Of a DNA stretch of 64,000 nt, positions 38,674 to 58,639 are shown piece after piece. The notes beneath the pieces are model-generated. The model had not been told where the DNA came from and made no database searches. It saw nothing but the letters and a program-made list of their open reading frames with translations. How positions within the stretch are numbered: the first letter of the stretch is position 1; every line of letters begins with the position of its first letter. A program made the position numbers and the translations under genes. Source of the DNA: an uncultured Chloroflexia bacterium (GTDB lineage Bacteria > Chloroflexota > Limnocylindria > Limnocylindrales > CSP1-4); NCBI GenBank assembly GCA_963746845.1, contig CAVVCZ010000007.1, positions 60,488 to 124,487 of the forward strand. The letters run 5' to 3'.

Positions 38674-40899
38674 ATGACCGCGCTCCCCGCGTCCTCCGCC
38701 AGCCCCGAACCGTCCGAAACCCGACGGTCGGGTGCGGTCGCCACGGGCAGTGCCCCCGCGGCGAAGCCACGGACGCCCCGCGAGAGCCGACGCGCGACGA
38801 AGACCGCGTACGTCAACCGCGAGCTGTCCTGGCTGGACTACGCGGGCCGGGTCCTGTACGAGGCGCGCGACGAGCGGAACGCGGTCCTCGACCGGGTGAA
38901 CTTCCTGACGATCTTCGCGAGCATGCTCGACGAGTTCTTCCAGATCCGGGTCTCGGGGCTCCGCCAGCAGGTCCACGCCGGCTCGACCACCACCTCCCCG
39001 GACGGCCTGACCGCCGGCGAGCAGCTCGCCGCGTCGCGGGAACAGGTCCTCGCGCTCGTCACCGAGCACAGCGCGGCATGGGCGGACGTCCGACGAGCCC
39101 TGGCGGCGGCCGGGATCGAGATCGTCAAGTACAACTCGATCCCCGAGCACCACGAGAGCCTCCGCCAGCGGTTCATCGACGAGATCTATCCCGTGCTGAC
39201 CCCGCTCGCGGTCGATCCGGGCCACCCGTTCCCGTACATCTCGACGCTGAGCCTGTCGATCGCGGTCGGGCTGCGCAACCCGGAGACCGGCGACCTGCAG
39301 TTCGCCCGGGTCAAGGTGCCGCAGATCCTGCCGCGGCTCTACCAGGTGGAGCCGAACCGGTTCGTCCTCCTCGACTCGATCATCGGCGCGAACCTCGACC
39401 TCCTGTTCAGCGGCATGGAGGTCGTCGAGCACCACCTCTTCCGGGTCACCCGCAACGCGGACCTGGCGCTCGAGGAGGACGAGGCCGACGACCTGCTGCT
39501 CGCGATCGAGGAGGAGCTCCGACGGCGGCGCTTCGGCGAGGCGGTCCGTCTCGAGGTCGAGCGATCGATGCCCGCCGGAACCCGGGCGATCCTTCTGAAC
39601 GGGCTCGGCCTCGGCGAGGACGACGCCTACGAGGTCCGGGGCATGCTCGACCTGACGGGTCTGCGTGACCTCGTCGACCTCGATCGCCCGGACCTGAAGG
39701 GCGAGCCCTGGACCCCGGTCACGCCGCCCCGCCTGGTCCCGCCCGACGAGGACGAGCCGGCCGACGTCTTCGCCGCGATCCGTCTCGGTGACCTCCTCGT
39801 CCACCACCCGTACGAGAGCTTCTCGGCGTCCGTCGAGCGGTTCATCGGGCAGGCCGTCGACGACCCTGAGGTCCTGACGATCAAGATGACGCTCTACCGG
39901 ACGTCGGGCGACTCGCCGATCGTCCGGGACCTGATCCGCGCGGCGGAGCGCGGCAAGCAGGTCGTCGTCCTCGTCGAGATCAAGGCCCGCTTCGACGAAG
40001 AGGCGAACATCGTCTGGGCCCGCCGACTGGAGCAGGCGGGCGCCCACGTCGTGTACGGCCTCGTCGGGCTGAAGACGCACTCGAAGGTCTGTCTCGTCGT
40101 CCGGCGCGAGGGCTCCGGGCTCCGCCGGTACGTCCACATCGGGACCGGCAACTACAACCCGAAGACCGCCCGCCTGTACACGGATCTCGGCCTCCTGACG
40201 ACCCGGCCGGAGCTCGGCGCGGACGTGACGGACCTGTTCAACGTCCTGACCGGGCTGTCGCGCCAGCGGACGTTCCGGCGGCTGCTCGTCGCGCCGCACG
40301 GCCTGCGGTCGCGGTTCCTCGAGCTCGTCGACCGGGAGATCGAGCACGCCAAGCTCGGCCGCGAGGCGCGGATCGTCGTGAAGCTCAACGCGATCGTCGA
40401 CCAACCCTCGATCGAGGCCCTCTACCGCGCGTCGCGGGCAGGCGTCGCGGTCCAGGTGATCGCCCGCGCGGCGTGCTCGCTCCTGCCCGGTGTGAAGGGC
40501 CTGTCCGAGACGATCTCCGTCCGCTCGATCCTGGGTGAGTTCCTGGAGCACTCCCGGATCTGGGGGTTCGCCAACGGCGGCGACGCGGACTGGTACATCG
40601 GCTCGGCCGACCTGATGGACCGGAACCTGGACCGGCGGGTCGAGGCGATGGTCCCGGTCGAGGATTCCGACGCCCGCAACCGGCTGGCCGAGATCATCGA
40701 GGTCATGCTCGCCGACGACCGGCGCTCCTGGCAGCTCGGACCCGATGCGGTCTGGCGCCGGACCGAGGACATCACCGGCCATCCGGGGACGTGCGACACG
40801 CACCGGGAGCTGAAGGCGCGAGCGCTCGGCGCGGTGCAGGTCGCGACCACGCCGCATCGACCGCGCGCCGGTGTCGGGTCGCTGGACCCACGCGCCTGA
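38674..40899 (+). CDS. ppk: polyphosphate kinase 1
   Basis: PPK1 N-terminal motif RELSWLDYAGRVLYEA...RVNFLTIFASMLDEFFQIRV, two PLD-like HKD regions, about 742 aa. ATG at 38674 inside the longer tracked ORF. Confidence 0.9.
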   Translation: MTALPASSASPEPSETRRSGAVATGSAPAAKPRTPRESRRATKTAYVNRELSWLDYAGRVLYEARDERNAVLDRVNFLTIFASMLDEFFQIRVSGLRQQVHAGSTTTSPDGLTAGEQLAASREQVLALVTEHSAAWADVRRALAAAGIEIVKYNSIPEHHESLRQRFIDEIYPVLTPLAVDPGHPFPYISTLSLSIAVGLRNPETGDLQFARVKVPQILPRLYQVEPNRFVLLDSIIGANLDLLFSGMEVVEHHLFRVTRNADLALEEDEADDLLLAIEEELRRRRFGEAVRLEVERSMPAGTRAILLNGLGLGEDDAYEVRGMLDLTGLRDLVDLDRPDLKGEPWTPVTPPRLVPPDEDEPADVFAAIRLGDLLVHHPYESFSASVERFIGQAVDDPEVLTIKMTLYRTSGDSPIVRDLIRAAERGKQVVVLVEIKARFDEEANIVWARRLEQAGAHVVYGLVGLKTHSKVCLVVRREGSGLRRYVHIGTGNYNPKTARLYTDLGLLTTRPELGADVTDLFNVLTGLSRQRTFRRLLVAPHGLRSRFLELVDREIEHAKLGREARIVVKLNAIVDQPSIEALYRASRAGVAVQVIARAACSLLPGVKGLSETISVRSILGEFLEHSRIWGFANGGDADWYIGSADLMDRNLDRRVEAMVPVEDSDARNRLAEIIEVMLADDRRSWQLGPDAVWRRTEDITGHPGTCDTHRELKARALGAVQVATTPHRPRAGVGSLDPRA

Positions 40900-40930
40900 T
40901 GGCCCAGCGCCGGACCGCGAGCCCGCGCCC

Positions 40931-42850
40931 GTGAGCACGACCTCGCGCGAAGGGCGGCCGGTCGAGATCGAGCTGAAGTACCGCGTCATCGATCGGCCGG
41001 CGGGTGATCACTACCTCGGCGCGGACGACGTCGCCGGGTTCGTCCCCGCGTCGGCGGTCCGCTCGGCCCAGGTCGAGGATCGCTACATCGACACGGTCGA
41101 CGGCGCCCTGGCCCGTGCCGGATTCGCGGCGCGGATCCGCCAGACGGCCAAGACGACGACCGTCGCGGTGAAGTCCGCCATCCGCCGGCGTGACCGGGGC
41201 GGCCTCCATCGGCGCGAGGAGCTGGAAGGTCCCGCCGACCGGACCTCGCCGCCGCGCGACTGGCCCCCGTCCGATGCCCGCTCCCTGATCCTCGAGCAAT
41301 GCGGCGACGCGCCGCTCGTCGAGGTCGTCACGATCCGTCAGCTTCGCCGGAAGCGGATCCTCGAGCGCGACGGGACGGCCGTCGAGGTGAGCCTCGACGA
41401 GGTGGATGCGGTCACGCGGAGCCGGGTCGTCGGCCGGTTCGTCGAGCTCGAGTTCGAGCTGGTGCGCGGCGACGAGGCCGCCCTCGTCGACATCGAACGG
41501 ACCCTCGCCGCCGACCCCGGGCTGGCACCGGCCGATTCGTCGAAGCTGGAGTCCGCGCTCCGCGCGGTGACCTCGACCGAATCACGCCGCGCCCGGAAGG
41601 GCGACCGCCTCCTGCCCCCGGTCGACGTCGACGACGCCGACGGCGAGGCGGATGCGGACGGCGAGCGCTTCGACGACGGCCAGGACGTCGGCCGGATCGT
41701 CGCGGCGGCGCTGGGCGAGGCTGCCCGTACCGCCGAGCCCGCCCCTCCCGCGAGCGGCGGAGCCACGCCGGCGGCGGCGGCGGCGAAGCGACGCACGGCA
41801 CCACGGACGGAGCCGGACGTCACACCGGTGATGGCGGGCGCATCCGTGCCCGAGGCAGCCCCGCCGAAGCCGGTCGCGACGACGCCGGACGATCCGGACG
41901 AGCGGCCGCGCCTCGTCGTCGGCAAGACGCCGGGCGTCCTCGCCGACGACCACCTCGCCGAGGCAGGCCGGAAGGTGCTCCGCTTCCACCTGGCCCGGAT
42001 GATCGCCCGCGAGGCCGGCACCCGGACCGGTGACGACCCCGAGGACCTCCACGCGATGCGCGTGGCGACCCGTCGCCAGCGGGCCGCGTGGCGGATCTTC
42101 GGCGAGGCGTTCCGCGACCGGCGCACGAAGGCCCATCGACGGCGCCTCCGCGAGGTCGCGTCGCGACTCGGGGCGGTCCGCGATCTCGACGTGCTGCTCG
42201 AGGCGATGGACGTCTATCGGGCGGACCTGCCGGTCGTCGAGCAGCGCGCCCTCGAGCCGCTGGTCGCGGCGTGGCGCGTCCACCGCGACGACGCGCGGGT
42301 GCTCCTCCTCCGCGAGCTCGATTCCGACGGATACCGTCGCTGGCTCGACGACTACGCGGAGTTCGTCCGGCACGAAGGCCTGGGCGCGCGACCGGTCGCC
42401 CCGACCGAGCCGCATCGGGTGCGAGACACCGCCGCGTCACGGGTCCAGGCCGCCTACGAGCAGGTCCGGGCCTACGAGCCGGTCCTGCGCTGGGCGGATG
42501 TCGACACGCTCCACGAGCTCCGGATCGCCGGGAAGTGGCTGCGCTACACGCTGGAGTTCGTGCGCGAGGCGCTCGGGCCGGACGCGGACGCCCTGATCGG
42601 CCGGGTCACGGCCCTCCAGGACCATCTCGGGCTCATGCACGACGCCGACGTCGCCGCGCACCTGGCGCGCGACTTCCTCCTTGACCACGCAGGCGACCTC
42701 AGCGACCTCGAGAGCGGCGCGATCGGGCGCTACCTCGTGAGCCGCGAACGGGAGGTCAACCGTCTGCGCCGGACCGTCGGCCCGACCTGGCGCGGCGTGA
42801 GCGGGATCGGGTTCCGGCGCGGCCTCGGACGGGCGCTCGCGGGTCTCTAG
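40931..42850 (+). CDS. CYTH-domain plus CHAD-domain protein
   Basis: N-terminal CYTH (EIELKY...E.E.E acidic pattern), C-terminal CHAD (HAMRVATRRQRAAWRIFGEAF...LREVASRLGAVRDLDV). Start is the GTG at 40931 or the upstream GTG at 40871, which overlaps the ppk1 end. Confidence 0.8.
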   Translation: MSTTSREGRPVEIELKYRVIDRPAGDHYLGADDVAGFVPASAVRSAQVEDRYIDTVDGALARAGFAARIRQTAKTTTVAVKSAIRRRDRGGLHRREELEGPADRTSPPRDWPPSDARSLILEQCGDAPLVEVVTIRQLRRKRILERDGTAVEVSLDEVDAVTRSRVVGRFVELEFELVRGDEAALVDIERTLAADPGLAPADSSKLESALRAVTSTESRRARKGDRLLPPVDVDDADGEADADGERFDDGQDVGRIVAAALGEAARTAEPAPPASGGATPAAAAAKRRTAPRTEPDVTPVMAGASVPEAAPPKPVATTPDDPDERPRLVVGKTPGVLADDHLAEAGRKVLRFHLARMIAREAGTRTGDDPEDLHAMRVATRRQRAAWRIFGEAFRDRRTKAHRRRLREVASRLGAVRDLDVLLEAMDVYRADLPVVEQRALEPLVAAWRVHRDDARVLLLRELDSDGYRRWLDDYAEFVRHEGLGARPVAPTEPHRVRDTAASRVQAAYEQVRAYEPVLRWADVDTLHELRIAGKWLRYTLEFVREALGPDADALIGRVTALQDHLGLMHDADVAAHLARDFLLDHAGDLSDLESGAIGRYLVSREREVNRLRRTVGPTWRGVSGIGFRRGLGRALAGL

Positions 42851-45412: not shown

Positions 45413-46652
45413 TTGATCGCGAGATCCCGCGTCGGCGCCGCCCTGACCGTCGCCAGCCTGTTCGTCGTCGCCGCCTGCAGCGGCGGTACCCTCAGTCCAT
45501 CACCGTCCGCCGCAGCCCCGTCGACGGTAGCAAGTGCTCCCGCAGACACTGGCGCTCCCTCTGGAGGAGCTCCCTCCGCATCGGTGGCAGCGCCGTCGGC
45601 CCAGGCAATCTCCTACCGCTGCTCGAAGGGCGACGGCCAGCTGAACGGCGCCGGATCGACATTCATCTTCCCGCTCATGCTCGAAGTGGGGCGACGACTA
45701 CAACACCAAGTGCGGCGTCAAGACTCAACTACCAGTCGATCGGCTCCGGCGGTGGCGTCGAAGGGCTGGACGCAGAACACCGTCGACTTCGGTGCCTCCG
45801 ACGCCTACCTCCAGGACGAGCGAGATCGCGGCCGCGGCCAAGAACGGCGAGCCGGTCGAGATCCCGGTCACCTTCGGGGCGGTGGTGGTCGCCTACAACC
45901 TGAAGGGCCTGTCGGCGCCGCTCAAGATGACGCCGGACATCGTCGCGAACCTGTTCCTGGGCAAGATCGCGAAGTGGAACGACCCTCGATCGCCGCGGCG
46001 AACCCGGGCGTGAACGCTGCCGGACATGGATGTCAGCGTCGTCCACCGCTCGGACGGGTCGGGCACCACGAGCATCTTCACCAACGTACCTGACGAAGGT
46101 CGAGCCCGGACTGGGTCACGACCGTCGGGGCCGGCGACCCGAAGAAGTCGGCCGGGCAAGACGGTCGGAATGGCCGACGGGTCTCGGGCGCGAGCGGCAA
46201 TGAGGGCGTCACCCAGGGGATCACCCAGACCGAGGGCGGGCGTCGGGTACATCGAGCTCGCGTACGCTCTGAAGAACAAGATCCCGTTCGCGGATGTGGC
46301 GAACAAGTCCGGCGCGTTCGTCACGCCGTCGCTCGACTCGGTCGAAAGCGGCCGCCGACCTGCCCGAGCTACCCGGCCGACCTGCGGTTCGACCTGGTCG
46401 ACACTCGACTCCCCGCACGGGCTATCCGATCACCGGGCACGACCTGGCTGATCATCTACAAGGACCTGTCGAAGGTGCTCAAGACCCAGGATCGAGCGAC
46501 CTCGTTGGCCGACTTTCTCTGGTGGGCGATCCACGAAGGCCAGGACAGTGCCGCGCCACTCTTCTATGCGGCGATCCCGGCAGGCCTGCTTCCGCAGGAC
46601 GAGGCGGCCGTGAAGTCGCTCAACTGGGGCGGCCAGGCGCTGCTGCCATAGT
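45413..46652 (+). pseudogene. pstS: phosphate ABC transporter substrate-binding protein PstS, broken into at least 4 frames
   Basis: N-terminal signal plus lipobox (VVAACSGG) and LNGAGSTFIFPLM in the first frame. Recognisable PstS segments then appear in shifted frames (SIGSGGGVEGL..., EIPVTFGAVVVAYNLKGL...KWNDP, VVHRSDGSGTTSIFT..., C-terminus ...KSLNWGGQALLP). Apparent stop at 46650-46652. Confidence 0.7.
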
Positions 46653-46761
46653 CTTCGATCCTCCTGTCACGACGCCGGCCCCCGGCATCCCGCGACGCCC
46701 GGGGCGGCGTCATCATTCCGGGAACCTACCCACTACATCGGGACGTGAGACGCTGCCGCAG

Positions 46762-47729
46762 ATGACGACCGTCGGTCAGGGCTTCGAGCAACGGCGATTG
46801 ACCAAGCGTTCCGTCGTGACCGGGGACCTCGTGTTCCGCGTGTTCACCGCCGCGCTGACATTCGCGGTTGTGCTCTTGATCAGCTTGATGGTCTACAAGA
46901 GCGTCGTGACCACCGTCCCGGTCTTCGACAAGTTCGGCGTTGTCGGCTTCGTCACCGGGACGCGATGGTCCCCGTCATTCGGAATCTACGGGGCCTTGCC
47001 GTTCATCTACGGGACGGTCCTGACCAGCGCAATGGCGCTCCTGATCGCAGTTCCGATCGCGCTTGGGATTGCGCTCCTCGTCACGGAGATGCTACCGCGA
47101 CGGATCGCCGGGCCCGTGGCCGTCGCCGTTGACCTGCTGGCCGCCATCCCGTCGGTCGTCTGGGGCCTGTGGGGGCTGCTCGTGCTCGTCCCGTTCCTGA
47201 GACCAATCGAGACGGCGATCGCCGGAAGCATCGGCCAGCTCATCCCGTTCCTTGGACCGCCCACGCCGGGACCCAGCTACTTCGCCGCCGGCGTCATCGT
47301 CGCGTTCATGATCATCCCGATCGTCGCCGCCGTCACCCGGGAGGTCTTCGCGGCCACCCCGCGGCTCCAGCGGGAGGCAGCCCTCGCCCTGGGCGGGACT
47401 CGCTGGGACGTCATCCGCCACGTCGTCGTCCCGATCGGGCGAACCGGCATCCAGGCGGCGGTGATCCTCGGGCTCGGACGGGCGATCGGCGAGACCATCG
47501 CGGTCACGCTCGTGATCGGGAACTCAACGAAGATCGGACCTCGATCTTTTCGCCAGGATTCTCGCTGGCCTCGGTCATCGCCAACGAGTTCAACGAAGCG
47601 ACCGAGCCGCTCCATCCGGAGTCGCTCATCACGCTGGGGGTCGTTCTGCTCGCGATCGCGGTGATCGTGAACGGTGCAGGTGTCGCCGTGCGTAGGCGCT
47701 TCGAGCAAGGTTCTGGCCGTGCTGGCTGA
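46762..47729 (+). pseudogene. pstC: phosphate ABC transporter permease PstC with a frameshift near 47530
   Basis: PstC TM core in one frame up to ...TLVIGNSTKIGP. The conserved C-terminus (IFSPGFSLASVIANEFNEATEPLHPESLITLGVVLL...) continues in another frame to the stop at 47727-47729. Confidence 0.7.
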
Positions 47730-47757
47730 TCCGACGCTCGTGTTCCGGCCGACGGGC

Positions 47758-48620
47758 CGCAGTCGCCTGGCAAGAGCCCGGCTGGTCTAGGTTCTCGCCG
47801 TCATCGCGCTGGTCGCTGCCCTGATCCCTCTGGTTTCCATCTTGACATTCCTCATCAGCCAGGGCATTGGCGTCATCCGGCTCGAGTTCCTCACCGAGGA
47901 CCCGCCAGGGCGATCTGAGCCAGGTCGGCGGCGGGATCCGGAATGCGGTTGTCGGCTCGCTCATGATGACCGGGCTTGCGACGATCTTCGCAGTGCCAGC
48001 CGGGATCCTCATCGCGGTCTTCAACCGGGAGATTGGAGGACGGCCGGCCGTCGCCATCCGCTTCCTGATGGACGTGCTCGTGGCGCTGCCGTCGATCGTG
48101 GTCGGGATCTTCGTCTACGAACTCGTCGTCGTCGCCCAGGGCCACTTCTCGGGGTTTGCCGGCTCGGTCGCTCTCGCGATCATCATGCTTCCGATCATCG
48201 TCATCTCGACCGAGGAGATGCTGCGCCTCGTTCCCGGCCCGGTTTCCGAAGGCGTCCGCGCCCTTGGGCTGACACGCTGGCGTTCGTACCTCGTCGGTGA
48301 TCATTCCGACGGCGCTGTCGGGGATCTTCACGGGCATCCTGCTCGCGGTCTCGCGCGCCATCGGCGAGACGGCGCCGCTGATCTTCACGGCGCTCGGCAA
48401 CAACTTCTTCACCCTGGACTTCAGCGAGCCCATGCAGGCGTTGCCGCTGTTGATCTATCGGAATGCGCTCAATTCCGCATTCCCGCGGCGCGCGACCGTG
48501 CGATGGGCGCTGCCCTTGTCCTCGTGGTGATCGTGCTCATCTTCAATCTTGTTGGCCGGTGGCTGGTGAGCAGACGTCTCGCCGAGCGACCGGCGCCAGT
48601 GAGCGGAACTGAGGTGCAGA
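47758..48620 (+). pseudogene. pstA: phosphate ABC transporter permease PstA with at least 3 frame breaks (approximate bounds)
   Basis: PstA segments alternate between frames: ...FLISQGIGVIRLEFLTEDPPG / ...GIRNAVVGSLMMTGLATIFAVPAGILIAV...ISTEEMLRLVPGPVSEGVRALGLTRW / IIPTALSGIFTGILLAVSRAIGETAPLIFTALGNNFF... / ...AMGAALVLVVIVLIFNLVGRWLVSRRL. Confidence 0.6.
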
Positions 48621-49470
48621 TGATCGCCGAGCTTGAACCCGATCCCGCTGACGTGTCCGCCGCCGTCCCGCAGGCGGCCATCGAGGTGGCGCCCAGGGAT
48701 ACGGACAATGTCCTGACCCTCGAGCATCTCGATGCCTATTACGGCAGCCGAAAGGTCGTCCGTGACGTGACGCTCGGCGTTCGGACGAACGCGATCACGG
48801 CGATCATCGGCCCGTCAGGAAGCGGCAAGTCCACGATGCTTCGATGCATCGACCGGATGCACGAAGTCATTCCGGGAGCCAGCGCGACCGGCACGATCCA
48901 GTATCGCGGAATCGACTCTATGGAGATGGGATCGATCCTGCAGCTGTTCGCCGGACGATCGGCATGGTCTTCCAGCAGCCGAACCCGTTCCCGACAAGTC
49001 GATCTTCGACAATGTCGTGGCCGCTCGGTTCAACGGCCTGGTCAAGGGCAAGACAGCGCGACGAGCTCGTCGAGACGAAGCCTTCGTCAGGCCGCCCTCT
49101 GGGACGAGGTCAAGGACAAGCTCAAGCAGAGCGGGCTCTCCCTGTCGGGCGGACAGCAACAGCGTCTCTGCATCGCGCGCGCGATTGCACGGAGCCGGAG
49201 ATGCTCCTGATGGACGAGCCGTGCTCGGCCCTCGATCCGCGCGCCACGCTTCAGATCGAGCAGCTGATGACCGAGCTCAAGGCCCGCTACACGATCGTCA
49301 TCGTGACCCACAACATGCAGCAGGCTGCCCGTGCATCGGACCGGACGGCGTTCCTGACGATGGGCGAGGATCGAGCAGGCTACGTCGTGGAGGAGGGTCG
49401 GACGGCCGACATCTTCACGAACCCGAAGCACCAGCTCACCGAGGACTATGTGTCGGGCCGATTCGGATGA
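48609..49470 (+). pseudogene. pstB: phosphate ABC transporter ATP-binding protein PstB with at least 3 frame breaks
   Basis: Walker A IIGPSGSGKST, TIGMVFQQPNPFP, signature LSGGQQQRLCIARAIA, Walker B MLLMDEPCSALDP and the C-terminus ...TEDYVSGRFG are all present but spread over alternating frames. Start is probably the ATG at about 48609 (MIAELEP...). Confidence 0.65.
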
Positions 49471-49627
49471 GCGAACGAGAGGCTGAGGACTGACCCATGA
49501 CCGACGATCCGAACGCCCAACGCTCGTCCCATGCATCTCCCGTCATCGCGGCGGCGATGACGGTTGTGCGGAAGCGGCCGATTCATACAACGAAGCCCAT
49601 CCGCCGCGTCCGAGCCTCGACCTGGAC

Positions 49628-50257
49628 ATGCGCGAGATCAAGGACGACATCCTCCGGATGGGCTCCTATGTGGAGGAGGCGATTCGAGCCGCGATGGCCG
49701 CCCTCGTTGCGCACGACGCGGCGTCCGCGACGGCCGTCATCGTCGCCGACGCGAAGATCAATGAGATGCAACGGGAAGTCACGGGCCTGATCACCCGGAC
49801 GATCGCGATGCAGTCGCCCGTCGCGCGCGATCTCCGGTTCCTGCTCGCGCTCGACCACGTCAGCTACGAGCTCGAGCGGATGGGCGACCACGCCGCTTCT
49901 GTCGCGAAGCAGGTCCGCAAGCTCGCCCCCTACCCGCCCCTGAAGCGCTATGTCGACCTCCCGGCAATGGGCGACCTCGCCGCGACGCTCGTCGGCAACA
50001 TCCTCCTGGCGCTGGTCGACGTCGATGTCGATGCGGCACGGCGCGTCGCGGCGCGCGACGACGAGATCGACGACCTCTACCACAGGACCTTCGCCGAGGT
50101 CGTCGAGCTGATGCGGGCGGACCCGGACAACGTCGAACGCGGCACCCGGATCCTGTTCGCCTCGCACTACGTCGAGCGGATCGGCGACCGGGTCACGAAC
50201 ATCGCCGAGGACGTGGTCTTCCTCGCGAGCGGCGAGATCGAGGACCTCAATCCATGA
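49628..50257 (+). CDS. phoU: phosphate signalling complex protein PhoU (5' end uncertain)
   Basis: Two PhoU repeats (PVARDLRFLLALDHVSYELERMGDHAASVAK and HYVERIGDRVTNIAEDVVF). In-frame homology extends about 10 codons upstream of the first ATG (...EAHPPRPSLDLDMREIKDDILRMG) with no canonical start, so the true start may lie upstream or be affected by another indel. Confidence 0.75.
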   Translation: MREIKDDILRMGSYVEEAIRAAMAALVAHDAASATAVIVADAKINEMQREVTGLITRTIAMQSPVARDLRFLLALDHVSYELERMGDHAASVAKQVRKLAPYPPLKRYVDLPAMGDLAATLVGNILLALVDVDVDAARRVAARDDEIDDLYHRTFAEVVELMRADPDNVERGTRILFASHYVERIGDRVTNIAEDVVFLASGEIEDLNP

Positions 50258-50700
50258 CGGAACCGACCAGGGTCCTGTTCGTCTCGACCGGCGGTGCCTG
50301 CCGGGCGATCTTCGCCCAGGCCCTCCTCCGGCACGTCGGCGGCGGGGCCTTCGACGCCTGGGCGTGCGGGACCGATCCGGCCCCGATCGATCCGCTGACG
50401 ATCCAGGTCCTCCAGGAGGCCGGGATCGACGGTTCCGGGCTCGAGCCGAGGGCCCTGAGCGAGGTGCTCGGCAAGCCGTTCGACTACGTCATCACGGTCT
50501 GCGACGACGCCCGGCTCGCCTGTCCGGTCTTCCCCGGCGCCGACCACTCGATGCATTGGGGCTACCCGAGTCCGGCGAAGGTCCAGGACCCCGCGGAGCG
50601 CAGGGCGGCGTTCGAGCGCGTCTTCATCCTCCTCGGCGAGCGGATTCGCCAGTTCGTTCTGCTCACCGAGCGGATCCAGCCCGCGGCCGCGGCGCACTAG
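50254..50700 (+). CDS. LMW-PTP/ArsC-fold protein with Ser in place of the nucleophilic Cys (variant paralogue)
   Basis: P-loop reads VSTGGACRAI instead of CTGNSCRS. The distal Cys pair of Trx-coupled ArsC (ITVCDDARLACPVFPG) is retained. Start overlaps the phoU stop. Confidence 0.55.
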   Translation: MTEPTRVLFVSTGGACRAIFAQALLRHVGGGAFDAWACGTDPAPIDPLTIQVLQEAGIDGSGLEPRALSEVLGKPFDYVITVCDDARLACPVFPGADHSMHWGYPSPAKVQDPAERRAAFERVFILLGERIRQFVLLTERIQPAAAAH

Positions 50701-50703
50701 GCG

Positions 50704-51144
50704 ATGGGGCCGGTCGCCGCCGATCCGGTCCGGATCCTCGTCCTCTGCACCGGGAACTCGTGCCGGTCGATCCTCGCCGAGGCGCTGTTCCGCGAGCTCG
50801 GCGGGGCCCGGGTCGCGGTGGAGTCGGCGGGAAGCCATCCCGCCGGCCGCGTCGACCCGCGCACGATCCGCGTCCTCGATGAGGCGGGCATCGATCACGC
50901 CTGGGCCCGATCGAAGTCGATGACCGAGCTCTTCGACCGGCCGTTCGACCATGTGATCACCGTCTGCGACGACGCAGCCGAGGCATGCCCCGTCTTTCCG
51001 GGCCCGGCCGTGCGGACCCACTGGAGCATCCCCGATCCCGTCGACGCCACCGGGAGCGACGAGGAGCAGCTCGCCGTCTACCGCGCGACGATGGCCGATC
51101 TACGCGAGCGGATCACCGCGTTCGTCGCTACCCTCGACACGTGA
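50704..51144 (+). CDS. arsC: arsenate reductase, LMW-PTP family (thioredoxin-coupled type)
   Basis: Canonical P-loop LVLCTGNSCRSILAEA plus the second and third Cys (ITVCDDAAEACPVFPG). Confidence 0.75.
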   Translation: MGPVAADPVRILVLCTGNSCRSILAEALFRELGGARVAVESAGSHPAGRVDPRTIRVLDEAGIDHAWARSKSMTELFDRPFDHVITVCDDAAEACPVFPGPAVRTHWSIPDPVDATGSDEEQLAVYRATMADLRERITAFVATLDT

Positions 51145-51641
51145 GCTCCGATACGCTCCAGCTGTACCTCCTTCGCCACGCCGACGCGGGCGATTCGGCG
51201 GCGTGGGATGGCGACGACGCCCATCGGCCGCTCAGCCCGAAGGGCGAGGCCCAGGCCGAGCGCCTCGCGACGTTCCTGCACGGGATCCGGTTCTCGACCG
51301 ACGCCCTGATCACGTCGCCCAAGGTGCGGGCGCTGCGCACCGCGGAGATCGTCGCCGACGGTCTCGGCGCGACGGTTCGGGTGGACGATCGCCTGGGGCT
51401 GCCGTACGAGCTGGCCACGATCGACGAGATCCTCGCCGATGCCGGATCGCCTGAGCGGCCCGTGCTGTCAGGCCACGACCCGGAGTTCAGCCACGTGCTG
51501 TCGGTCCTGGCCGGCGCCGGTGACCTGATCATGAAGAAGGGCGCGTTCGCGCGAATTGACGTCCGCGGCCGGGTCGCCGACGGGCGCGGCACGCTGCGCT
51601 GGCTGATCCCACCGGACCTGCTGAATCGGGACCGCCGCTGA
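51141..51641 (+). CDS. sixA: histidine phosphatase family protein (SixA-like phosphohistidine phosphatase)
   Basis: GTG overlapping the arsC stop. RHA motif LYLLRHADAG with a following His region. 166 aa. Confidence 0.65.
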   Translation: MSSDTLQLYLLRHADAGDSAAWDGDDAHRPLSPKGEAQAERLATFLHGIRFSTDALITSPKVRALRTAEIVADGLGATVRVDDRLGLPYELATIDEILADAGSPERPVLSGHDPEFSHVLSVLAGAGDLIMKKGAFARIDVRGRVADGRGTLRWLIPPDLLNRDRR

Positions 51642-51971
51642 GGGTCGACCGGACTCGACGGATGTCCATGCCGCCGTGAACCCGCGTCCATGTCCCGCGC
51701 CACCCCTCGGGACGACGATGGCCCCACCAGTTGCCATTCGCCCAGAGGATCGTGACCGTCATGCAGCCACTCGCCGCCTACTACGTCTTCCTCGCGAACG
51801 AGGAGGCCCGCCAGGCCGACGCTCGTCCGCATTACCGCACCCAGACGCCGCGCCGCTCGACCCGATCCCGGTTCAGCGCCGCCGTCGCCACCCTCGCCCG
51901 GCCCGTTCGCCGGAGCGCGGGATCACCCGCCTGACCGCCCCTCCGATCCGCCGGCCTGATCCGTTCCGCGG

Positions 51972-53227
51972 TCAGCCGGCTCCCGTCGGGACGACGAGCG
52001 GCTCGTCGTCCTCCGCGTCGATCGGGAACGGCAGCGCGATCGGATCGGTCGCCAGCCGGCTCCGGCCGGCGGCATCGAACCGATCGAGGCCGAGATCGCC
52101 GACGTCGACGACGTCCGTCGATCCGGTCATAGCCAGGTCCGCGGCGACGCGCGCCACGCCCGGTCCCCACATCATCCCGTGACCGCCCGCCGAGGCGATC
52201 GTCACGCCCGAGATCCGCTCGCCGGCCGCCGACAGGCCCGGCCCGAGGATCGGCAGATGGTCGGGCGTGAAGTCGATCGTCGCGGCCCAGATCTTCCGGA
52301 GGCCGAGCCCGCGGGTCACCGGCACGAACCCCGCCAGGCGATCGCGCATCGCCTCGTACATCGCCCAGTCGATGGCGCGGGCCTCGCCGGGCCGATCGCT
52401 CGGGTCGCTCCAGCCGAACAGCAGCCCGCCCTCCTCGAGGCGCCAGTACAGGCCCGCCCCGATGTCGAACACCATCGGCTGGCGCTCGACGGCGAACGCC
52501 TCGTGCGGCTGCGAGGACCGCGACCGTGTGGCGGACGGCGCCCGCCGGGATCCGGATGCCCGCCAGCCGGCCGACGGCTCGCAGCCCGGGACCGCCGGTG
52601 AGCAGCACCCGCTCCGCCGCGATCGGTCCGTGGTCCGTCACGACCCCGACGACCCGTGACCCGCCACCGGGGAGCGGCTCCGTCCGGAGACCCGTGAACG
52701 CGGTGTGCTCGCGCAGCTCGACGTCGGCGCGGTCCATCGCGAGCGAGTAGGCGCGGACGTTGCGGGGCGGGTCGATGTGGCCGTCCGTCGCGAGGTAGCT
52801 GCCGCCGCGATGCCCGTCCGGGCTCAGGGTGGGGTTCAGGGCGACGGCCTCGGACGGCGAGACCCAGCGGACGTCGAGGCCGGCCGCTCCGCTGCATCGC
52901 GACGCGCTCGCGACCGGACCGCTCGTCCTCGTCGGTGACCGCGAGGATCAGGTAGCCGAGCTCGCGGAAGCCGCTGTCGGTGCCGAACGTCGCCGACTGA
53001 CGACGGTAGAAGTCGATCGACCAGCGGCCGAGGGCGACGGTTGTCGGCGTCCCGCCCTGGGCCCGGACGATCCCCGCCGCGCGGCTGCTCGCGCCCTGGC
53101 CCGGCGATCGCCGCGCTCGACGACGACGACCCGCCCGGCGCCGTCCATCGCGGCGAAGGTGCTCGCCCAGCCGCCGATCGTGCCCGCGCCGACGACGACG
53201 AGATCCGCGCGTTCCGTGCTGCTCACG
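51972..53227 (-). pseudogene. DAO-family FAD-dependent oxidoreductase (glycine/sarcosine-oxidase-like) with at least 2 frame breaks
   Basis: N-terminus VSSTERADLVVVGAGTIGGWASTFAAMDGAGRVVVVERGD in one frame, the middle part (...DVELREHTAFTGL...VVGVVTDHGPIAAERVLLTGGPG) in a second, and the C-terminus (...IASAGGHGMMWGPGVARVAADLAMTGS...) in a third. Confidence 0.6.
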
Positions 53228-53982
53228 TCGGGAGGATAGGCCGGGGCCGGGCGCCGCCGGTCGGCGCGTCGCGATGGTCGGGCCGGGTGAGCCGTCGAGG
53301 ACCGATCAGCCGTCGAGGGCCGCGGCCTCGCGCAGATCGCGACGACGCCGAGACGCTCGAAGCGCCGGTAGGTCGCCCGGCGGCGGACGGTCCAGGTCGC
53401 GACCTCCAGGCCCGCGTCGCGGGCGCGCCCGATCCCGGCCGGATCGAGCGCGTGCCACTCGATCGAGACGCCGCGGCACCCCAGGTCGACGGCACGGCCG
53501 ATCGTGTGCGGCGAGGCGTCACGAGAGTTGAGCCAGCGCGGCCAGGTCGGCGCCCAGTCCGCGATCCGCGCGAGCGTGGCGTCCCAGAAGGACGACACGA
53601 CGGCTCGCTCGAGACCCGGACCACGGCCGGCGACGATCGTCTCGAACGCGCCGCGTCCGGGGTCACCCTTCAGCTCGATGTCGAGGAACGCTCGGCGCGG
53701 GGCAGTCGCGAGGACCTGCTCCAGGCTCGGCACCCCGAGCCGCTCCAGCTCGTCGGCCGTCAGGTCGGCCACGCGGTCATGCAACCCATGGACCCGTAAC
53801 AGCGTGTCATCGTGGTAACAGACGGCCACGCCATCGCGGGACGCCCGCACGTCGAACTCCAGGCCGTCACAGCCCGGAACGTCCAGGGCGGCCAGGAACG
53901 CGGCGATCGTGTTCTCGGGGGCGCGTCGCCAATCGCCGCGATGGGCGAGCCGGAGCGCCCGCGGCGACAGGGGCTCGATCAT
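53228..53982 (-). CDS. glycerophosphodiester phosphodiesterase (GDPD family); 3' end unclear (no in-frame stop before the DAO-like N-terminus)
   Basis: ATG at 53980-53982 (overlaps the stop of the upstream EEP gene). GDPD motifs LAHRGDWRRAPENTIAAF and DGLEFDVRASRDGVAVCYHDDTL. After about 220 residues the frame becomes Arg-rich with rare codons and runs without a stop into the DAO-like GxGxxG segment. Confidence 0.65.
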
Positions 53983-54728
53983 CCGCCCACCGAGAGCCGG
54001 GCGGACAGCCCGAAGTGGTCGGACGGATAGAGCGTCGGATCGCCGACCGCCGGCCGATCGAACGCCAGCCGGCAACGCTCCACCCGGACCGGGCCGCGGA
54101 CCCAGATGTAGTCGAGGCAGCCGTCGAACCCGTCGTCGTCCTTGGCCGGCGCATCGAGGCCTGACGGCCACGTGACGGGGGGCTCGAACCCGTTCGCCTC
54201 GAGGTGGGCGGAGCGGAACCCGGCGTCGGTCATCCGCGCGTAGGTCGGCTCGTCCGGCTCGGCGTTGAAGTCACCGACGACGATCAGCGCGTCGGTTCCA
54301 TGCGCCGTGTCGAGCCACTCGATCAGCTGGCGCGCCTGGTCGTCCCGGTGGGCCTCGTGGGCCGTGACGTGGTGGAGATGGGTCACGACCATCCGGACCG
54401 CCTGGCCGCCGGCAAGCCGCACCGTGGTTCGGAGGGCGGAGCGGGCGATCCCGAGGTCCAGACGCTCGGGTTCGGCGGCCGCGAGTGGCTGACGGATCAG
54501 AAGCGCGTTCCCGTATTCCGGTCGCCCGGCCCACGCCCGGACGCTCTCATAGCGACCCTCGCCGGCCGCCCCGATCAGGCGGTCCTGCTGGAGCGGGTAG
54601 ACAACCTCCTGGAGCCCCAGCAGGTCGGGCTGGAGTGCGGCCATGTCGGCGAGGAGCAGTGGCAGGCGCTCGTCCCAGCGGTCGGCCAGGTTCCGGATGT
54701 TCAGGGTCGCGACGTGGACGGATTCCAT
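53979..54728 (-). CDS. endonuclease/exonuclease/phosphatase (EEP) family protein
   Basis: 249 aa. EEP signatures (ATLNIRN..., LLGLQEV, VVGDFN, SDHFGL). Confidence 0.75.
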   Translation of the reverse strand: MESVHVATLNIRNLADRWDERLPLLLADMAALQPDLLGLQEVVYPLQQDRLIGAAGEGRYESVRAWAGRPEYGNALLIRQPLAAAEPERLDLGIARSALRTTVRLAGGQAVRMVVTHLHHVTAHEAHRDDQARQLIEWLDTAHGTDALIVVGDFNAEPDEPTYARMTDAGFRSAHLEANGFEPPVTWPSGLDAPAKDDDGFDGCLDYIWVRGPVRVERCRLAFDRPAVGDPTLYPSDHFGLSARLSVGG

Positions 54729-54772
54729 GGGTGCAGTGTGCCGTGCGGGCGACGGATCGTCCGCGGCGCGCG

Positions 54773-56182
54773 TCAGCTGGCGCCGATCGGCGACGCCGCT
54801 CGCGACGACACGGGAAGGGCGAAGGTGAACGTCGAGCCTCGACCCTCCTCGGACTCGACCCAGATCCGGCCGCCGTGCTGCTGGATGACGTGGCGGGCGA
54901 TCGCCAGCCCGAGACCCGTCCCGCCGCCGCGCACGCGCACCCGATCGACCTTGTAGAAGCGCTCGAAGATCCGGTCCTGGTCGCTCGTCGGGATCCCGAC
55001 ACCATGGTCTTCGACGGAGAGCGTGATCTCGTCGCCGTCGTTGCGCACCGTGACGCGGACCTCGTCGGGCGTCCCGTCGCCCCGATCCGATCGAACCGTC
55101 ATGGGCTCGTCGTCTTCGAGGCCGCCCGGGCGGCCGAACTTCAGCGCGTTGTGGACCAGGTTGACCACGACCTGACCGAGACGCGCCTCGTCGCCGCGCA
55201 GCGCCGGCACGCGTGGCGGCACGTCGACGACCAGCCGCAGGCCCTGTCGATCCGCGAACACGCGGAGACGGTCGGCGGCCTCGATCGCGACCCGCCCGAG
55301 GTCGACCTCCTCCAGCAGGAGCGGCCCGCCGCCCTCGATCCGGGCGAGATCCAGCAGCTCGTTGACCATCTGGACGAGGTGCCCGGTCTCGACCTCGATC
55401 TTCCCGATCCGGTCGCGCATCTTCGGTGGGACGCCGTCACCTGCCGCCTCGGCCTCCCGGACGAGCGTCTCGGCGAGAAGGCTGACCGTGGACAGCGGCG
55501 TCCGCAGCTCGTGGGACAGGTTGTCGACGAACTCGGTGCGGATCTGCTGGAGCCGCCGGAGCTCCGATACGTCCTCGAGGACGACCCACACCCCGAGCGT
55601 CGGCGAGTGACGTGCACGGATCACGAGGATCGGTCCGTCCGGCCCCGGCAACCGGTACTCGCCGGACGATCCGCCGGTTCGCCCGGCGATGGCGATCAGA
55701 TCCTCGACCCGGGCGTCGACGAACGCCTCCAGCGCGGTCCTGCCTCGGAGCGAGCGGGGCGGGCGCCGCAGGAGCGCATGCGCTGCGGCATTCGCCAGAT
55801 CGATTCGGCCCGATTCATCGAAGCGGAGGATGCCGACGCCCATCAGGTCGGCCAGGTACGACGCATTGCGGACCTGCTGATCGAGCTCGAACTCCGACGC
55901 GGCCAGGCGATCGCGTAGACGGCGCGCGAGCGTCGGCAGATCGGCCTCCGCATCACCGTCGACGGGAGCCGGAACCAGAGAGCGTCCTGCGGCGACCGGC
56001 TCGCTGGCGTTGGAGACCGGGATGGCGCGTGTGGTCGTTCCACCGGCCCGGACCAGAGCGTCGCGTGCGGCCCTGATCTGGCGGCCCCGATCCAGTGCGA
56101 CCCCGACCGCGATCGCAAGGGCGATCCCGAGGAGGGCGACGAGGGCGACGGCGATCCCATCCATGCCGCCCGAGCATCGCAC
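54773..56182 (-). CDS. sensor histidine kinase with PAS domain (SenX3-like architecture); no adjacent response regulator
   Basis: N-terminal TM, PAS-like region, H-box FVDNLSHELRTPL, and a C-terminal HATPase_c domain (conserved Asn, NxxxNAxK, in VVNLVHNALKFG; G1/G2 box region in DHGVGIPTSDQDRIFERFYKV...GGTGLGLAIA). GTG start at 56180-56182; the inner ATG at 56162-56164 is an alternative. Confidence 0.8.
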   Translation of the reverse strand: MRCSGGMDGIAVALVALLGIALAIAVGVALDRGRQIRAARDALVRAGGTTTRAIPVSNASEPVAAGRSLVPAPVDGDAEADLPTLARRLRDRLAASEFELDQQVRNASYLADLMGVGILRFDESGRIDLANAAAHALLRRPPRSLRGRTALEAFVDARVEDLIAIAGRTGGSSGEYRLPGPDGPILVIRARHSPTLGVWVVLEDVSELRRLQQIRTEFVDNLSHELRTPLSTVSLLAETLVREAEAAGDGVPPKMRDRIGKIEVETGHLVQMVNELLDLARIEGGGPLLLEEVDLGRVAIEAADRLRVFADRQGLRLVVDVPPRVPALRGDEARLGQVVVNLVHNALKFGRPGGLEDDEPMTVRSDRGDGTPDEVRVTVRNDGDEITLSVEDHGVGIPTSDQDRIFERFYKVDRVRVRGGGTGLGLAIARHVIQQHGGRIWVESEEGRGSTFTFALPVSSRAASPIGAS

Positions 56183-56216: not shown

Positions 56217-57209
56217 CTAAGGCGTCAGCCAGACCCGGTAGTCGCGGATCGACTGGGGCGAGCCGTCCTTCTCGGACGGGTCGTAGACGTGGAGGGTCCC
56301 GTACTGCGCCTTTGAGACCGTGTAGGCGATCGACGTGTCGAACGTGCCGCGGCAGCCGCTGCCGCACGTCGCCATCACCGGCTTGTCGGCGATCGCCTTG
56401 CCGGACCCGTCGAGGATCGAGATCCGGAACTGCGCCTCGAACACGTCCGCCGACCCGGTGACGTGCGCGGGGTTCCCGATCGCCGCGTTCCACGCGGGCC
56501 GGTCGACCCAGATCGCCGGGAGGAGCGAGACGAAGTCGGCCCGCCCGAGCGCCTTGGCCGGGGCAACACCCTCGACCTGGATCGCGACGGACTTCACCGT
56601 CGGGAACTGGGTGAGCGTGTAGACGACCTGGCCCGCACGGGTCTGGACGCCGCTCGCGTCGCCCCCGGCCGCGAACTCGCTCGAGAGGTTGACGGTCGCG
56701 ACTCCGCTCGCGATCGACAGGCCGAGGAGCTGCGTCCCCGACGGCACGGCCGTCGAGATCGAGTTCCGGGTCTCCATCGCGGTGGGTCCGGCCAGCAGGG
56801 CGTTCAGGGCTGCCGTCGCGACGGCCTTCGTCGAAGGCACCTCACGGAGCGTCGCCACGAGTCCCGCGCTGCCCTCGCCGCCACCGAGCCAGAAGTAGGT
56901 GCGGAGGATCGTGGTCCCACCCGGTGCGGGCGTTGGAGACGGGGTGGCGAACGGCGTCGATGGCTCGGTCGTCGGCTGACCGGTCGGCTCGCTCGATGGG
57001 GTCTCGCTCTGGCTCGGCGACGGGGCCGGCGTGACGTCCGGGCTGCCGAGCGCGACCGACGGCTCGGGCGAGGCCGAGACCACCGGCACGGAGCCGAGCG
57101 GGCCGCTGCCGCCGCACGCGACGGCGAGTGCCGCGATCACGAGAAGGACGAGGATGGTGGGCGCTGAGCGTCGGGTCGTCATCGGGATGGCCCTCGGATA
57201 CGGGTTCAT
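56217..57209 (-). CDS. GerMN-domain lipoprotein (short LpqB-like)
   Basis: Signal plus lipobox (LAVACGGSG), Pro/Ser/Thr-rich linker, GerMN-type domain. Immediately downstream of the mtrB-like kinase with start/stop overlap. Confidence 0.65.
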   Translation of the reverse strand: MNPYPRAIPMTTRRSAPTILVLLVIAALAVACGGSGPLGSVPVVSASPEPSVALGSPDVTPAPSPSQSETPSSEPTGQPTTEPSTPFATPSPTPAPGGTTILRTYFWLGGGEGSAGLVATLREVPSTKAVATAALNALLAGPTAMETRNSISTAVPSGTQLLGLSIASGVATVNLSSEFAAGGDASGVQTRAGQVVYTLTQFPTVKSVAIQVEGVAPAKALGRADFVSLLPAIWVDRPAWNAAIGNPAHVTGSADVFEAQFRISILDGSGKAIADKPVMATCGSGCRGTFDTSIAYTVSKAQYGTLHVYDPSEKDGSPQSIRDYRVWLTP

Positions 57210-58639
57210 CGACCTTCAGCGTCGGCGTTCGGGGTCGCAGGGGCATCGCCGAGCGGTAACGGTATGGTCACGGGCAGGACGAGATCGAGCGCGAGGCCGC
57301 CGCTGTCGCGGTTGCGGGCATGGAGCACCCCGCCGATCAGGGCCGCGTGCTCCGCGGCGATCGCGAGGCCGAGGCCGCTCCCCCCGCGACGCGACGGATC
57401 GGCCATGTAGAACCGATCGAAGATCCGCTCCAGGCGGTCCGGCGGAACGCCAGGCCCACGGTCGGCGACGGTGATCTGGACGCGGTCGGCCGAGGCACGC
57501 ATCGCCACGACCACGAGGGCGCCGGGCGCGTGCTCGCGGGCGTTGTCGAGCAGGTTGCCGAGGATCCGCTCCAGACGCCGAGGATCGGTCTCGATCACGA
57601 CCCGTTCGTCCGGCAGCTCGAGGACAGCGTCCCGATGGCGGGCCCCGGCGGTGTCCCGGATCAGCCGGTTGAGGTCGACCGGCTGGCTGCGGACCTCCTC
57701 GCCGGCCGCGTCGAACCGCGACAGCTCCATCAGGTCCTCGACGAGCACCCGCATCCGTCCGACGTCCTGGACGACCAGCTCACCCGCTCGCCGCGCGTCC
57801 GGTGGCAGCGCGTCGAGGTGGTCCCGCAGGATCGAGACTTCCGCGACGAGCGCGGCGACCGGCGTCCGCAGCTCGTGGCTGACGTCGGCGACGAACCGGC
57901 GGTTCTGGGTCTGGGCGGACTCGAGCCGGACGATCGTCTCCTGGAGCGTGTCGACCATCTCGTTGAACTGCTGCGCCCAGACCCCGAACTCGTCGTCGGA
58001 GGTGAGCGGAACGCGCGCGGCGAGGTCACCGTGGGCGATCCGCTGCGCGGTCCGGGCGGCCTCGTCCACGGGCGCGAGCACGCCCCGGGCGACGACCCGC
58101 GACGCGACGAGGGCGATGATCACGAGGACGATCGTGCCGGCGGCGAGCGCATACCGGAGCTGGAGCAGCGTGTCCTCGATCGCGGTTTCGTCGCGGATGA
58201 ACCAGATGGCGGGACCCGTGCCGGACACGCGACCGCCGACGATGAGGCTCGACCGTCCGGTCACCGGCTGCCACGAATAGGCGATCTGGCCCTGGTCGAC
58301 GAGCGTCCGTACGTCGGCCGGGATCGTCTCGAGGGTGCCGCGCAGGGTCGCCGGACTGTAGAAGGCGTCGCCGCCCTGCGGGACGATGATCGTGTCGAGA
58401 CGGCGGCGCTGGAACGCGTCGGCGAGGTCCTGGACCTGGGCCCCGGTCGGCGGCTCGTCGAGCCGGCCCGGAGCGAGGATCGACAGGTCGAACGCGGCCT
58501 GATCGGCGGCCTCGTGGAGGGCCTGCTCGTGGAGGCGGCTGTCGACGAAGACGTAGGCCGCGACCCCGAGGACGACGGCGGTCAGGACGACGAGGGCGAC
58601 GATCGTGACCGTCAGCCGGCCGCGAACGCCGCTCAGCAT
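57206..58639 (-). CDS. mtrB: sensor histidine kinase MtrB-like (HAMP plus HisKA plus HATPase_c)
   Basis: Two TM, HAMP (FNEMVDTLQETIVRLE), H-box FVADVSHELRTPVAAL, G-boxes (ADRGPGVPPDRLERIFDRFY...GGSGLGLAIA). Confidence 0.85.
   Translation of the reverse strand: MLSGVRGRLTVTIVALVVLTAVVLGVAAYVFVDSRLHEQALHEAADQAAFDLSILAPGRLDEPPTGAQVQDLADAFQRRRLDTIIVPQGGDAFYSPATLRGTLETIPADVRTLVDQGQIAYSWQPVTGRSSLIVGGRVSGTGPAIWFIRDETAIEDTLLQLRYALAAGTIVLVIIALVASRVVARGVLAPVDEAARTAQRIAHGDLAARVPLTSDDEFGVWAQQFNEMVDTLQETIVRLESAQTQNRRFVADVSHELRTPVAALVAEVSILRDHLDALPPDARRAGELVVQDVGRMRVLVEDLMELSRFDAAGEEVRSQPVDLNRLIRDTAGARHRDAVLELPDERVVIETDPRRLERILGNLLDNAREHAPGALVVVAMRASADRVQITVADRGPGVPPDRLERIFDRFYMADPSRRGGSGLGLAIAAEHAALIGGVLHARNRDSGGLALDLVLPVTIPLPLGDAPATPNADAEGR

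Follow-up and report, generated by a model that had tools for sequence, protein, structure and literature searches.

The window analysed here is a stretch of 64,000 nucleotides from an uncultured Chloroflexia bacterium (contig CAVVCZ010000007.1) with a G+C content of 72%; its own coordinates are used throughout. Between 49.5 and 51.6 kb the + strand carries four tightly packed genes. These are phoU (49497–50257), two genes for ArsC-like proteins of the LMWPc family (PF01451), namely open reading frame 1 (ORF1, or LMW1; 50254–50700, 148 aa) and ORF2 (LMW2; 50704–51144, 146 aa), and ORF3 (HP; 51141–51641, 166 aa, GTG start), a short SixA-like histidine phosphatase (PF00300). Upstream, the operon contains pstS-pstC-pstA-pstB (45413–49467, + strand), the genes of a high-affinity ABC transporter for phosphate, which several frameshifts interrupt. 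A first-pass annotation, made from the letters alone, had described phoU followed by two genes of the low-molecular-weight protein-tyrosine phosphatase (LMW-PTP) fold and a SixA-like phosphatase gene, and this gene set is confirmed on the + strand by the ORF calls and by Pfam and NCBIfam matches. It had also described each gene as overlapping its neighbor, which is correct for phoU/ORF1 (ATGA) and ORF2/ORF3 (GTGA), both 4-nt overlaps, but not for ORF1/ORF2, where the junction TAG-gcg-ATG leaves a 3-nt spacer. Judged from its sequence, this spacing is still near enough for coupling.

ORF1 belongs to the LMWPc superfamily (PF01451, E=9e-16, 58.8 bits against a cutoff of 23.2). Its score of 67.1 bits with TIGR02691, the model for pI258-type ArsC, is far under the equivalog cutoff of 174.3. 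To compare individual residues, ORF1 was mapped onto Staphylococcus aureus pI258 ArsC, with a numbering that agrees with the mutant names in the PDB (C10S, C15A, H62Q and C89L). The P-loop of ORF1 reads S11-T-G-G-A-C16-R17-A18 (50284–50307, + strand), such that Ser11 (codon TCG, 50284–50286) takes the place of the nucleophilic Cys10 of thioredoxin-coupled ArsC, and Gly14 and Ala18 take the places of Asn13 and Ser17. Ser106 (AGT, 50569–50571, + strand) stands where pI258 ArsC has its general acid, Asp105. The distal Cys82/Cys89 pair, which is invariant in all groups of homologues, is present in both proteins, as C88/C95 in ORF2 and as C83/C90 in ORF1, where it forms the ends of the redox loop C83-D-D-A-R-L-A-C90 (50500–50523, + strand). 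The first-pass annotation was therefore right that ORF1 combines STGGACR, and ORF2 CTGNSCRS, with a distal Cys pair. The proteins also do not conform to LMW-PTPs or arginine phosphatases (Wzb, PtpA and YwlE), which are marked by a C-X5-R-S/T motif with a catalytic Cys and a D-P general-acid loop near the C-terminus, since ORF1 lacks the catalytic Cys and Asp, and both ORFs carry the ArsC-type Cys pair. Models and structures of Wzb and YwlE score far lower (E-values of 1e-4 to 1e-6) than those of ArsC (1e-20 to 1e-35). On this sequence evidence, ORF1 should be assigned to the LMWPc superfamily and the ArsC fold family, but should not be filed as ArsC because Cys10 and Asp105, two defining features, are missing.

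The AlphaFold2 model of ORF1 (pLDDT 90, pTM 0.87, from a 78-sequence alignment) displays the canonical strand-loop-helix arrangement at the P-loop. Its top structural matches all have the LMW-PTP/ArsC fold, and include, as the closest, Deinococcus indicus ArsC2 (8p5n and 8p6m, TM 0.86–0.94), then pI258 and Bacillus subtilis ArsC, and the engineered C10S/C15A form of pI258 ArsC (1jf8), which is the best match outside Deinococcus. The predicted model thus confirms the fold. D. indicus ArsC2, to which ORF1 is about 40% identical, is a characterized three-cysteine, thioredoxin-family arsenate reductase (PMC10483234). ORF1 shares the P-loop Arg and the Cys82/Cys89 redox pair with the thioredoxin-coupled enzymes (pI258, B. 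subtilis and D. indicus ArsC2), and ORF2 shares their full catalytic set. In contrast to these enzymes, ORF1 lacks Cys10, Asn13, Ser14, Ser17 and Asp105, and both ORFs score under the TIGR02691 cutoff and are located in a pst-phoU operon rather than an arsRBC operon. The engineered C10S and C10S/C15A variants of pI258 ArsC (1jf8, 1jfv) resemble ORF1 in having Ser at the nucleophile site with the fold and Cys82/Cys89 intact. However, they were made in the laboratory and retain Asn13, Ser17 and Asp105, whereas ORF1 is natural and selected, and carries further, coordinated changes.

The Ser variant is not peculiar to this window. Among the best 120 of 2649 homologues, the motif ST[GS][GAC]A.R[AS] is found in 36 of the 36 closest cluster representatives (about 55–90% identity), a second group of at least ten carries STSNASRS, and the remainder carry CTGNSARS. 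Ser11 and Arg17 are each present in all 36 members of the STGG clade. The first-pass annotation had asked whether the first ORF is conserved in related genomes and whether its Ser variant forms a clade of its own; both are answered by the 36 Ser-containing sequences, which are monophyletic, with weak support, in a neighbor-joining tree (bootstrap 52; 34 for the sister relation to the STSN group). Relative to Cys-type orthologues, five positions of pI258 ArsC are changed in this clade (Cys10 to Ser, Asn13 to Gly, Ser14 to Ala, Ser17 to Ala and Asp105 to Ser), and each change is 86–100% conserved within it. At the position of Asp105, for example, Ser is found in 97% of the STGG clade and Asp in 97% of the Cys-type proteins encoded at the same gene position. 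Arg16, Cys82, Cys89 and the entire CDDARxxCPxFPGAD segment are invariant in the clade, and constraint has been lost at residues 64–66 of ORF1 (63–65 of pI258), in a loop adjacent to the active site. Because these five changes coexist with an invariant Arg16, Cys82 and Cys89, the residues for binding and attacking arsenate have been dismantled and those of the disulfide cascade kept. The STSNASRS group has also lost Cys10, but retains Asn13, Ser17 and Asp105. Cys16 and Cys38 of ORF1 were considered as a third As(III) ligand and rejected, as they are not conserved (63% and about 17% of the clade, respectively).

ORF1 is under purifying selection. Within the Ser clade, dN/dS (Nei-Gojobori) is 0.17–0.52 for ORF1 and 0.12–0.34 for ORF2. 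The non-synonymous rate of LMW1 is 1–2.4 times that of LMW2, and the ratio of the two is similar in Cys-type and Ser-type lineages. Since LMW1 is the faster gene in both, constraint did not collapse when the Cys was lost. The complete conservation of Ser11, together with that of the new P-loop motif, indicates selection rather than drift, and ORF1 is intact in a window that is otherwise full of frameshifts. Elsewhere in the family, Ser occurs sporadically at the nucleophile site in remote ArsC-like lineages (P0158, in both of its domains, P0219, P0224 and P0055). Loss of the catalytic Cys is therefore recurrent in the wider family.

ORF2 (PF01451, E=9e-21, 75 bits against 23.2) has the motif C15-T-G-N-S-C20-R-S and all catalytic residues of thioredoxin-coupled arsenate reductases (C15, N18, C20, R21, S22, C88, C95 and D111), with Cys15, Asn18, Ser22 and Asp111 equivalent to Cys10, Asn13, Ser17 and Asp105. 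In the PDB it matches D. indicus ArsC2 best (E=1e-34, 40–45% identity). ORF2 is most likely a working thioredoxin-type ArsC, because of its residues, its fold family and its context. ORF3 matches His_Phos_1 (PF00300, E=7e-13) and, under the cutoff, sixA (TIGR00249, E=4e-15, 56 bits against 74.5). Its catalytic motifs R12-H13 and G-H111-D are intact, and its best PDB matches are cyanobacterial Alr0221 (3f2i) and E. coli SixA (1ujb), with which it shares the short histidine phosphatase fold family, the RH motif and the second catalytic His. Unlike them, it is always paired with an ArsC-like LMW gene behind phoU. ORF3 is accordingly a predicted SixA-like histidine phosphatase and the constant third member of the module.

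The order pstS-pstC-pstA-pstB-phoU-LMW1-LMW2-HP is found in every contig examined that encodes a position-1 protein (LMW1 or its orthologue), and is followed by convergent genes for DAO, GDPD, an Exo_endo_phos phosphatase and a HisKA kinase. As the same order recurs in every related contig examined, the arrangement is more than chance. The part phoU-LMW1-LMW2-HP is present in all Ser-type contexts examined (the window, L001, L002, L003/L004, L089 and three more contigs). In the contigs examined, position 2 always has the CTGNSCRS motif, the distal Cys pair and PDP, and position 1 is of the STGG type in the window, L001, L002, L089 and two JGI contigs, of the STSN type in L003/L004 and of the Cys type in L005–L008. 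Among the matches listed from GTDB species representatives there is no Ser-type genome (best match 57% identical), and the arrangement pstB-phoU-LMW-HP is found in at least about 15 further Limnocylindria-type metagenome-assembled genomes (MAGs), most of which have just one LMW gene, of one type or the other (L011 has both); these matches also include two MAGs with a PhoU-LMW pair, one from Eisenbacteria and one unclassified. The outgroup MAGs with a single LMW gene of either type imply that the two copies are redundant. The sequences point to an old pair of redundant paralogues that underwent differential loss, with copy 1 remodelled in one lineage. Upstream of pstS the window encodes a CYTH-CHAD protein (40871–42850, + strand), which combines a triphosphate tunnel enzyme with a polyphosphate-granule-associated domain, and relatives have Ppx-GppA in this place; the whole neighborhood is therefore one of phosphate and polyphosphate metabolism.

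Several relatives have arsenic genes next to the module. In L003–L008, HP is directly followed by a gene for an ArsR-family regulator (NF033788), an ORF of 64–67 aa ending in (C/G)CPA, and arsM, the gene for an arsenite methyltransferase (NF008823, 291 bits, cutoff 263). These three genes lie between HP and DAO, at 7466–9058 in L005, 7412–8976 in L003 and 7748–9328 in L007. One STGG-type contig has kept arsR without arsM, and the window, L001 and L002 have neither. This distribution shows that the arsenic genes shrink in step with the degeneration of the LMW1 P-loop, and the presence of arsR-arsM beside the module supports, at the level of gene context, an arsenic role for the ancestral module. 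The suggestion of the first-pass annotation that an arsenate-handling module is wired to the Pho system gains support from these downstream genes and from the synteny behind phoU in many Limnocylindria-type MAGs.

With moderate confidence, the locus is interpreted as the distal portion of an operon for phosphate starvation (pstSCAB-phoU-LMW1-LMW2-HP) in Limnocylindria-type Chloroflexota, in which ORF2 would be an arsenate reductase and ORF1 its non-catalytic, redox-responsive partner. Arsenate would enter with phosphate, as its analogue, through the high-affinity transporter, and would be reduced by the thioredoxin-type ORF2, co-expressed with that transporter. In ORF1, the tandem paralogue of ORF2, the groups for the first half of the ArsC reaction (nucleophile, P-loop supports and general acid) have disappeared, and the Arg that binds the oxyanion is retained together with the disulfide loop of Cys82 and Cys89. 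Given these losses, ORF1 most likely neither reduces arsenate nor hydrolyzes phosphoesters by a known route. Instead, it would act as a partner or regulator through Arg17 and the Cys83/Cys90 loop; it would be made in fixed proportion to PhoU by means of the ATGA overlap, and always adjoins an intact LMW2. The first-pass annotation had offered a non-catalytic binder as one of two options, and this fits better than the other, a phosphatase, although the most conserved part of the protein, the Cys83/Cys90 redox loop, had been given little stress. By analogy, ORF1 is probably a pseudo-reductase comparable to the Cys-to-Ser pseudophosphatases.

Several observations weigh against this interpretation. 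Neither ORF reaches the TIGR02691 equivalog cutoff (ORF2 scores 96.9 bits), and the search of the window's locus revealed neither a gene for arsenite efflux nor arsR or arsM. The sole hints of a partner role for LMW1 are LMW-LMW and LMW-HP fusions, which are possible frameshift artefacts. The neighbor-joining tree is weak, with bootstrap values of 34–63 at key nodes, and with this support it does not distinguish one from several losses of Cys within position 1. In addition, a module with phosphate and polyphosphate neighbors throughout could serve phosphate signaling instead of arsenic handling, and the sequence may be compatible with a direct attack of Cys83 on arsenate. These last two points lead to the alternatives with the greatest weight.

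In the first alternative, there is no arsenic handling at all: LMW2, LMW1 and the SixA-like protein would be phosphatases of proteins or small molecules that tune Pho signaling (a PhoR-type kinase and PhoU) or polyphosphate metabolism, with the Ser form of LMW1 as a substrate-trapping or regulatory subunit. Every neighbor is indeed phosphate-related (CYTH-CHAD, Ppx-GppA in relatives, pstSCAB, phoU, GDPD, the EEP phosphatase and the HisKA kinase), and arsenic genes are missing from the window's locus as described above. SixA, an LMW phosphatase ('WzB'), ppx and pst also occur together in marine HIMB59 phosphate islands (PMC10734472). However, the Cys82/Cys89 pair, which is specific to ArsC and missing in LMW protein-tyrosine phosphatases, is present in both LMW proteins; both also score far higher with models and structures of ArsC than with those of Wzb, YwlE or LMW-PTP, and arsR-arsM abuts the module in relatives. 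This alternative is considered unlikely.

Slightly less likely still is that ORF1 remains an arsenate reductase by a two-cysteine route, in which Arg17 and the P-loop amides would bind arsenate, Cys83 would attack, Cys90 would resolve the intermediate and thioredoxin would recycle the enzyme. The invariance of R17, C83, C90 and the whole CDDARxxCPxFPGAD loop is as expected for such a route, and every substitution in the P-loop introduces a small residue (Gly, Ala or Ser), which could make room for Cys83. Nevertheless, the general acid has been lost as well, residues 64–66 of the active-site loop are no longer constrained, and the engineered C10S form of the pI258 enzyme served to obtain inert crystal forms (1jf8, 1jfv). 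No ArsC with this fold is known to us to function when the P-loop Cys is missing.

The faster non-synonymous evolution of LMW1 (1–2.4 times that of LMW2), the relatives with a single LMW gene, which show that one copy is dispensable, and the progressive loss of arsR and arsM in the same lineages are all consistent with a redundant duplicate in slow decay, kept merely by its place in a translationally coupled operon. This account is improbable, as dN/dS is well under 1, the ORF is of full length without frameshifts in all contexts, and Ser11, Ser106, R17, C83 and C90 are 97–100% conserved in proteins that are merely about 55–60% identical overall.

It is more doubtful again that ORF1 is a hydrolytic phosphatase with Ser11 as its nucleophile, as the first-pass annotation had also envisaged. 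Ser11 is strictly conserved, the P-loop Arg is retained, and the sister STSNASRS group still has Asp105, Asn13 and Ser17. In the clade of the window, however, Asp105 is replaced by Ser, and Asn13, Ser14 and Ser17 by Gly, Ala and Ala, so that the residues on which a phosphatase would depend are missing too and the proposal is not borne out. Cys-to-Ser variants of CX5R phosphatases are, moreover, classically inactive substrate traps (compare the pseudophosphatases STYX and MK-STYX). Finally, a sequencing or assembly error at the Ser codon, suggested by the many frameshifts in pstS, pstC, pstA, pstB, phoU and DAO and raised in the first-pass annotation as a single-base change from TGC or TGT, has next to no probability and is refuted by the sequence comparisons: TCG is two substitutions away from TGC or TGT, and TGC is the codon at the homologous site in relatives with Cys, the same TCG is shared by four independent assemblies (L001, L002, L003/L004 and L089), and the Ser state occurs in at least 46 protein clusters with correlated changes at four other sites.

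For the favored interpretation of ORF1 as a non-catalytic partner, the closest functional analogy may be with the eukaryotic Cys-to-Ser/Gly pseudophosphatases of the CX5R superfamily, STYX and MK-STYX/STYXL1, without implying phosphoprotein binding. These proteins function by binding rather than catalysis. Like ORF1, they have lost the catalytic Cys but kept the fold and the phosphate-binding Arg, and are maintained by selection; unlike ORF1, they come from eukaryotes, adopt the fold of dual-specificity phosphatases instead of the LMW-PTP fold and contain no redox Cys pair. A more specific version of this role, which is a long shot at present, would make the Ser form of LMW1 a dedicated sensor subunit of Pst/PhoU, in which the remodelled pocket of the P-loop (Arg17) and a switch formed by Cys83/Cys90 would signal the presence of arsenate or arsenite, or thiol-redox stress, to PhoU and on to PstB or a PhoR-type kinase. 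If so, phosphate uptake would be throttled during arsenate co-import, and phosphate and arsenate would be discriminated by a pseudoenzyme at the level of transporter control.

A link between phosphate acquisition and arsenate detoxification, genomic or regulatory, has been described before. Arsenic islands may contain pst/pho genes (PMC3834237), and the LMWPc_ArsC of SAR11 shows selection and mild induction under phosphate limitation (PMC6426599). In those systems, pst/phoU is located beside aio/ars in Proteobacteria, or arsC is a separate gene, whereas here the pst-phoU transcription unit itself includes the ArsC-like genes, one of which is Cys-less. In the literature searched, neither a natural Cys-less ArsC nor a phoU-arsC-sixA operon is described, only the general ars-pho linkage.

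The proteins of this family are labelled in databases as 'arsenate reductase ArsC' or 'protein-tyrosine-phosphatase'. Neither name is likely to be correct for the Ser clade, which is probably a conserved pseudo-reductase subclade mislabelled by current annotation, and metagenomic arsC counts would consequently run too high in soil Chloroflexota. In terms of enzyme evolution, the locus presents a case in which either of two redundant tandem ArsC paralogues can be lost, and in one lineage one of them has shed its nucleophile, general acid and P-loop supports in a coordinated manner with the redox loop kept under selection. An ArsC/SixA-like module behind phoU across a widespread, uncultured soil class also provides a testable handle on arsenate entry via the high-affinity phosphate transporter, and may bear on the interaction partners of PhoU.

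The frameshifts were checked by tblastn with the intact proteins of a 90%-identical relative. With L002 proteins, pstS was located at 45413–46636, pstC at 46816–47550 and 47541–47726, pstA at 47719–47910 and 47909–48580, and pstB at 48620–49189 and 48916–49467. Relative to the intact orthologues, the frame is broken near 47545 in pstC, near 47910 in pstA, between 48916 and 49189 in pstB and near 52540 in DAO, and pstS is also divided over frames; the stretches concerned are 45413–49640 and 51975–53226. phoU is an uninterrupted ORF from the ATG at 49628, but its true start is probably the ATG at 49497, with a 1-nt frameshift near 49565, as PhoU of relatives has 252 aa and its N-terminal 'MTDDPNA...AAAMTV' is found in another frame in the window. 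The protein scores 185.4 bits with TIGR02135 (phoU_full; cutoff 130.25), as expected for a full-length PhoU. These breaks look like indel errors of long reads or a real pseudogenization of the phosphate transporter. ORF1–ORF3 align over their full length without frameshifts.

The third-position G+C content (GC3) of the + strand ORFs is 0.89–0.93 (0.93 for ORF1), and the antisense ORFs at 50167–51021 and 51128–51832 were rejected as high-GC artefacts. A promoter and terminator scan gave three terminator-like matches, one of them within ORF1 (50635–50650), against 1.9 expected, which were dismissed as chance. In distant lineages, LMW-LMW fusions (P0122, P0123, P0126, P0128, P0131 and P0206) and LMW-HisPhos fusions (P0138 and P0140) are found, some with degenerate Cys sets, such as P0123, whose two domains both have Tyr in place of Cys82. 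They could indicate a physical association of the module parts or be frameshift artefacts; they are not orthologous in domain order, and P0130 is clearly such an artefact.

Downstream of HP, a 57-aa ORF (MQPLAAYYVFLANEEARQ...SPA; 51761–51934, + strand) is kept in L002 and L001, where the small ORFs in the same place are 77% and 58% identical to it, respectively. The L002 copy has no family match, and the window's ORF is weakly similar to an 85-aa ORF in L003. The - strand from 51975 to 56182 carries convergent genes for phosphate scavenging and signaling, which encode a frameshifted DAO (glycerol-3-P-dehydrogenase-like) protein, GDPD, an Exo_endo_phos phosphatase and a HisKA/HATPase_c sensor kinase (54773–56182); all were located by tblastn with L001 and L002 proteins, and their Pfam names are taken from relatives. 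In the part examined, no receiver-domain regulator was recognized next to this kinase or next to a nearby second HisKA/HATPase_c kinase (57206–58639, - strand), which is separated from it by a Germane/Gmad2 protein (56217–57209). The kinase at 54773–56182 is the conserved PhoR-like neighbor of the operon.

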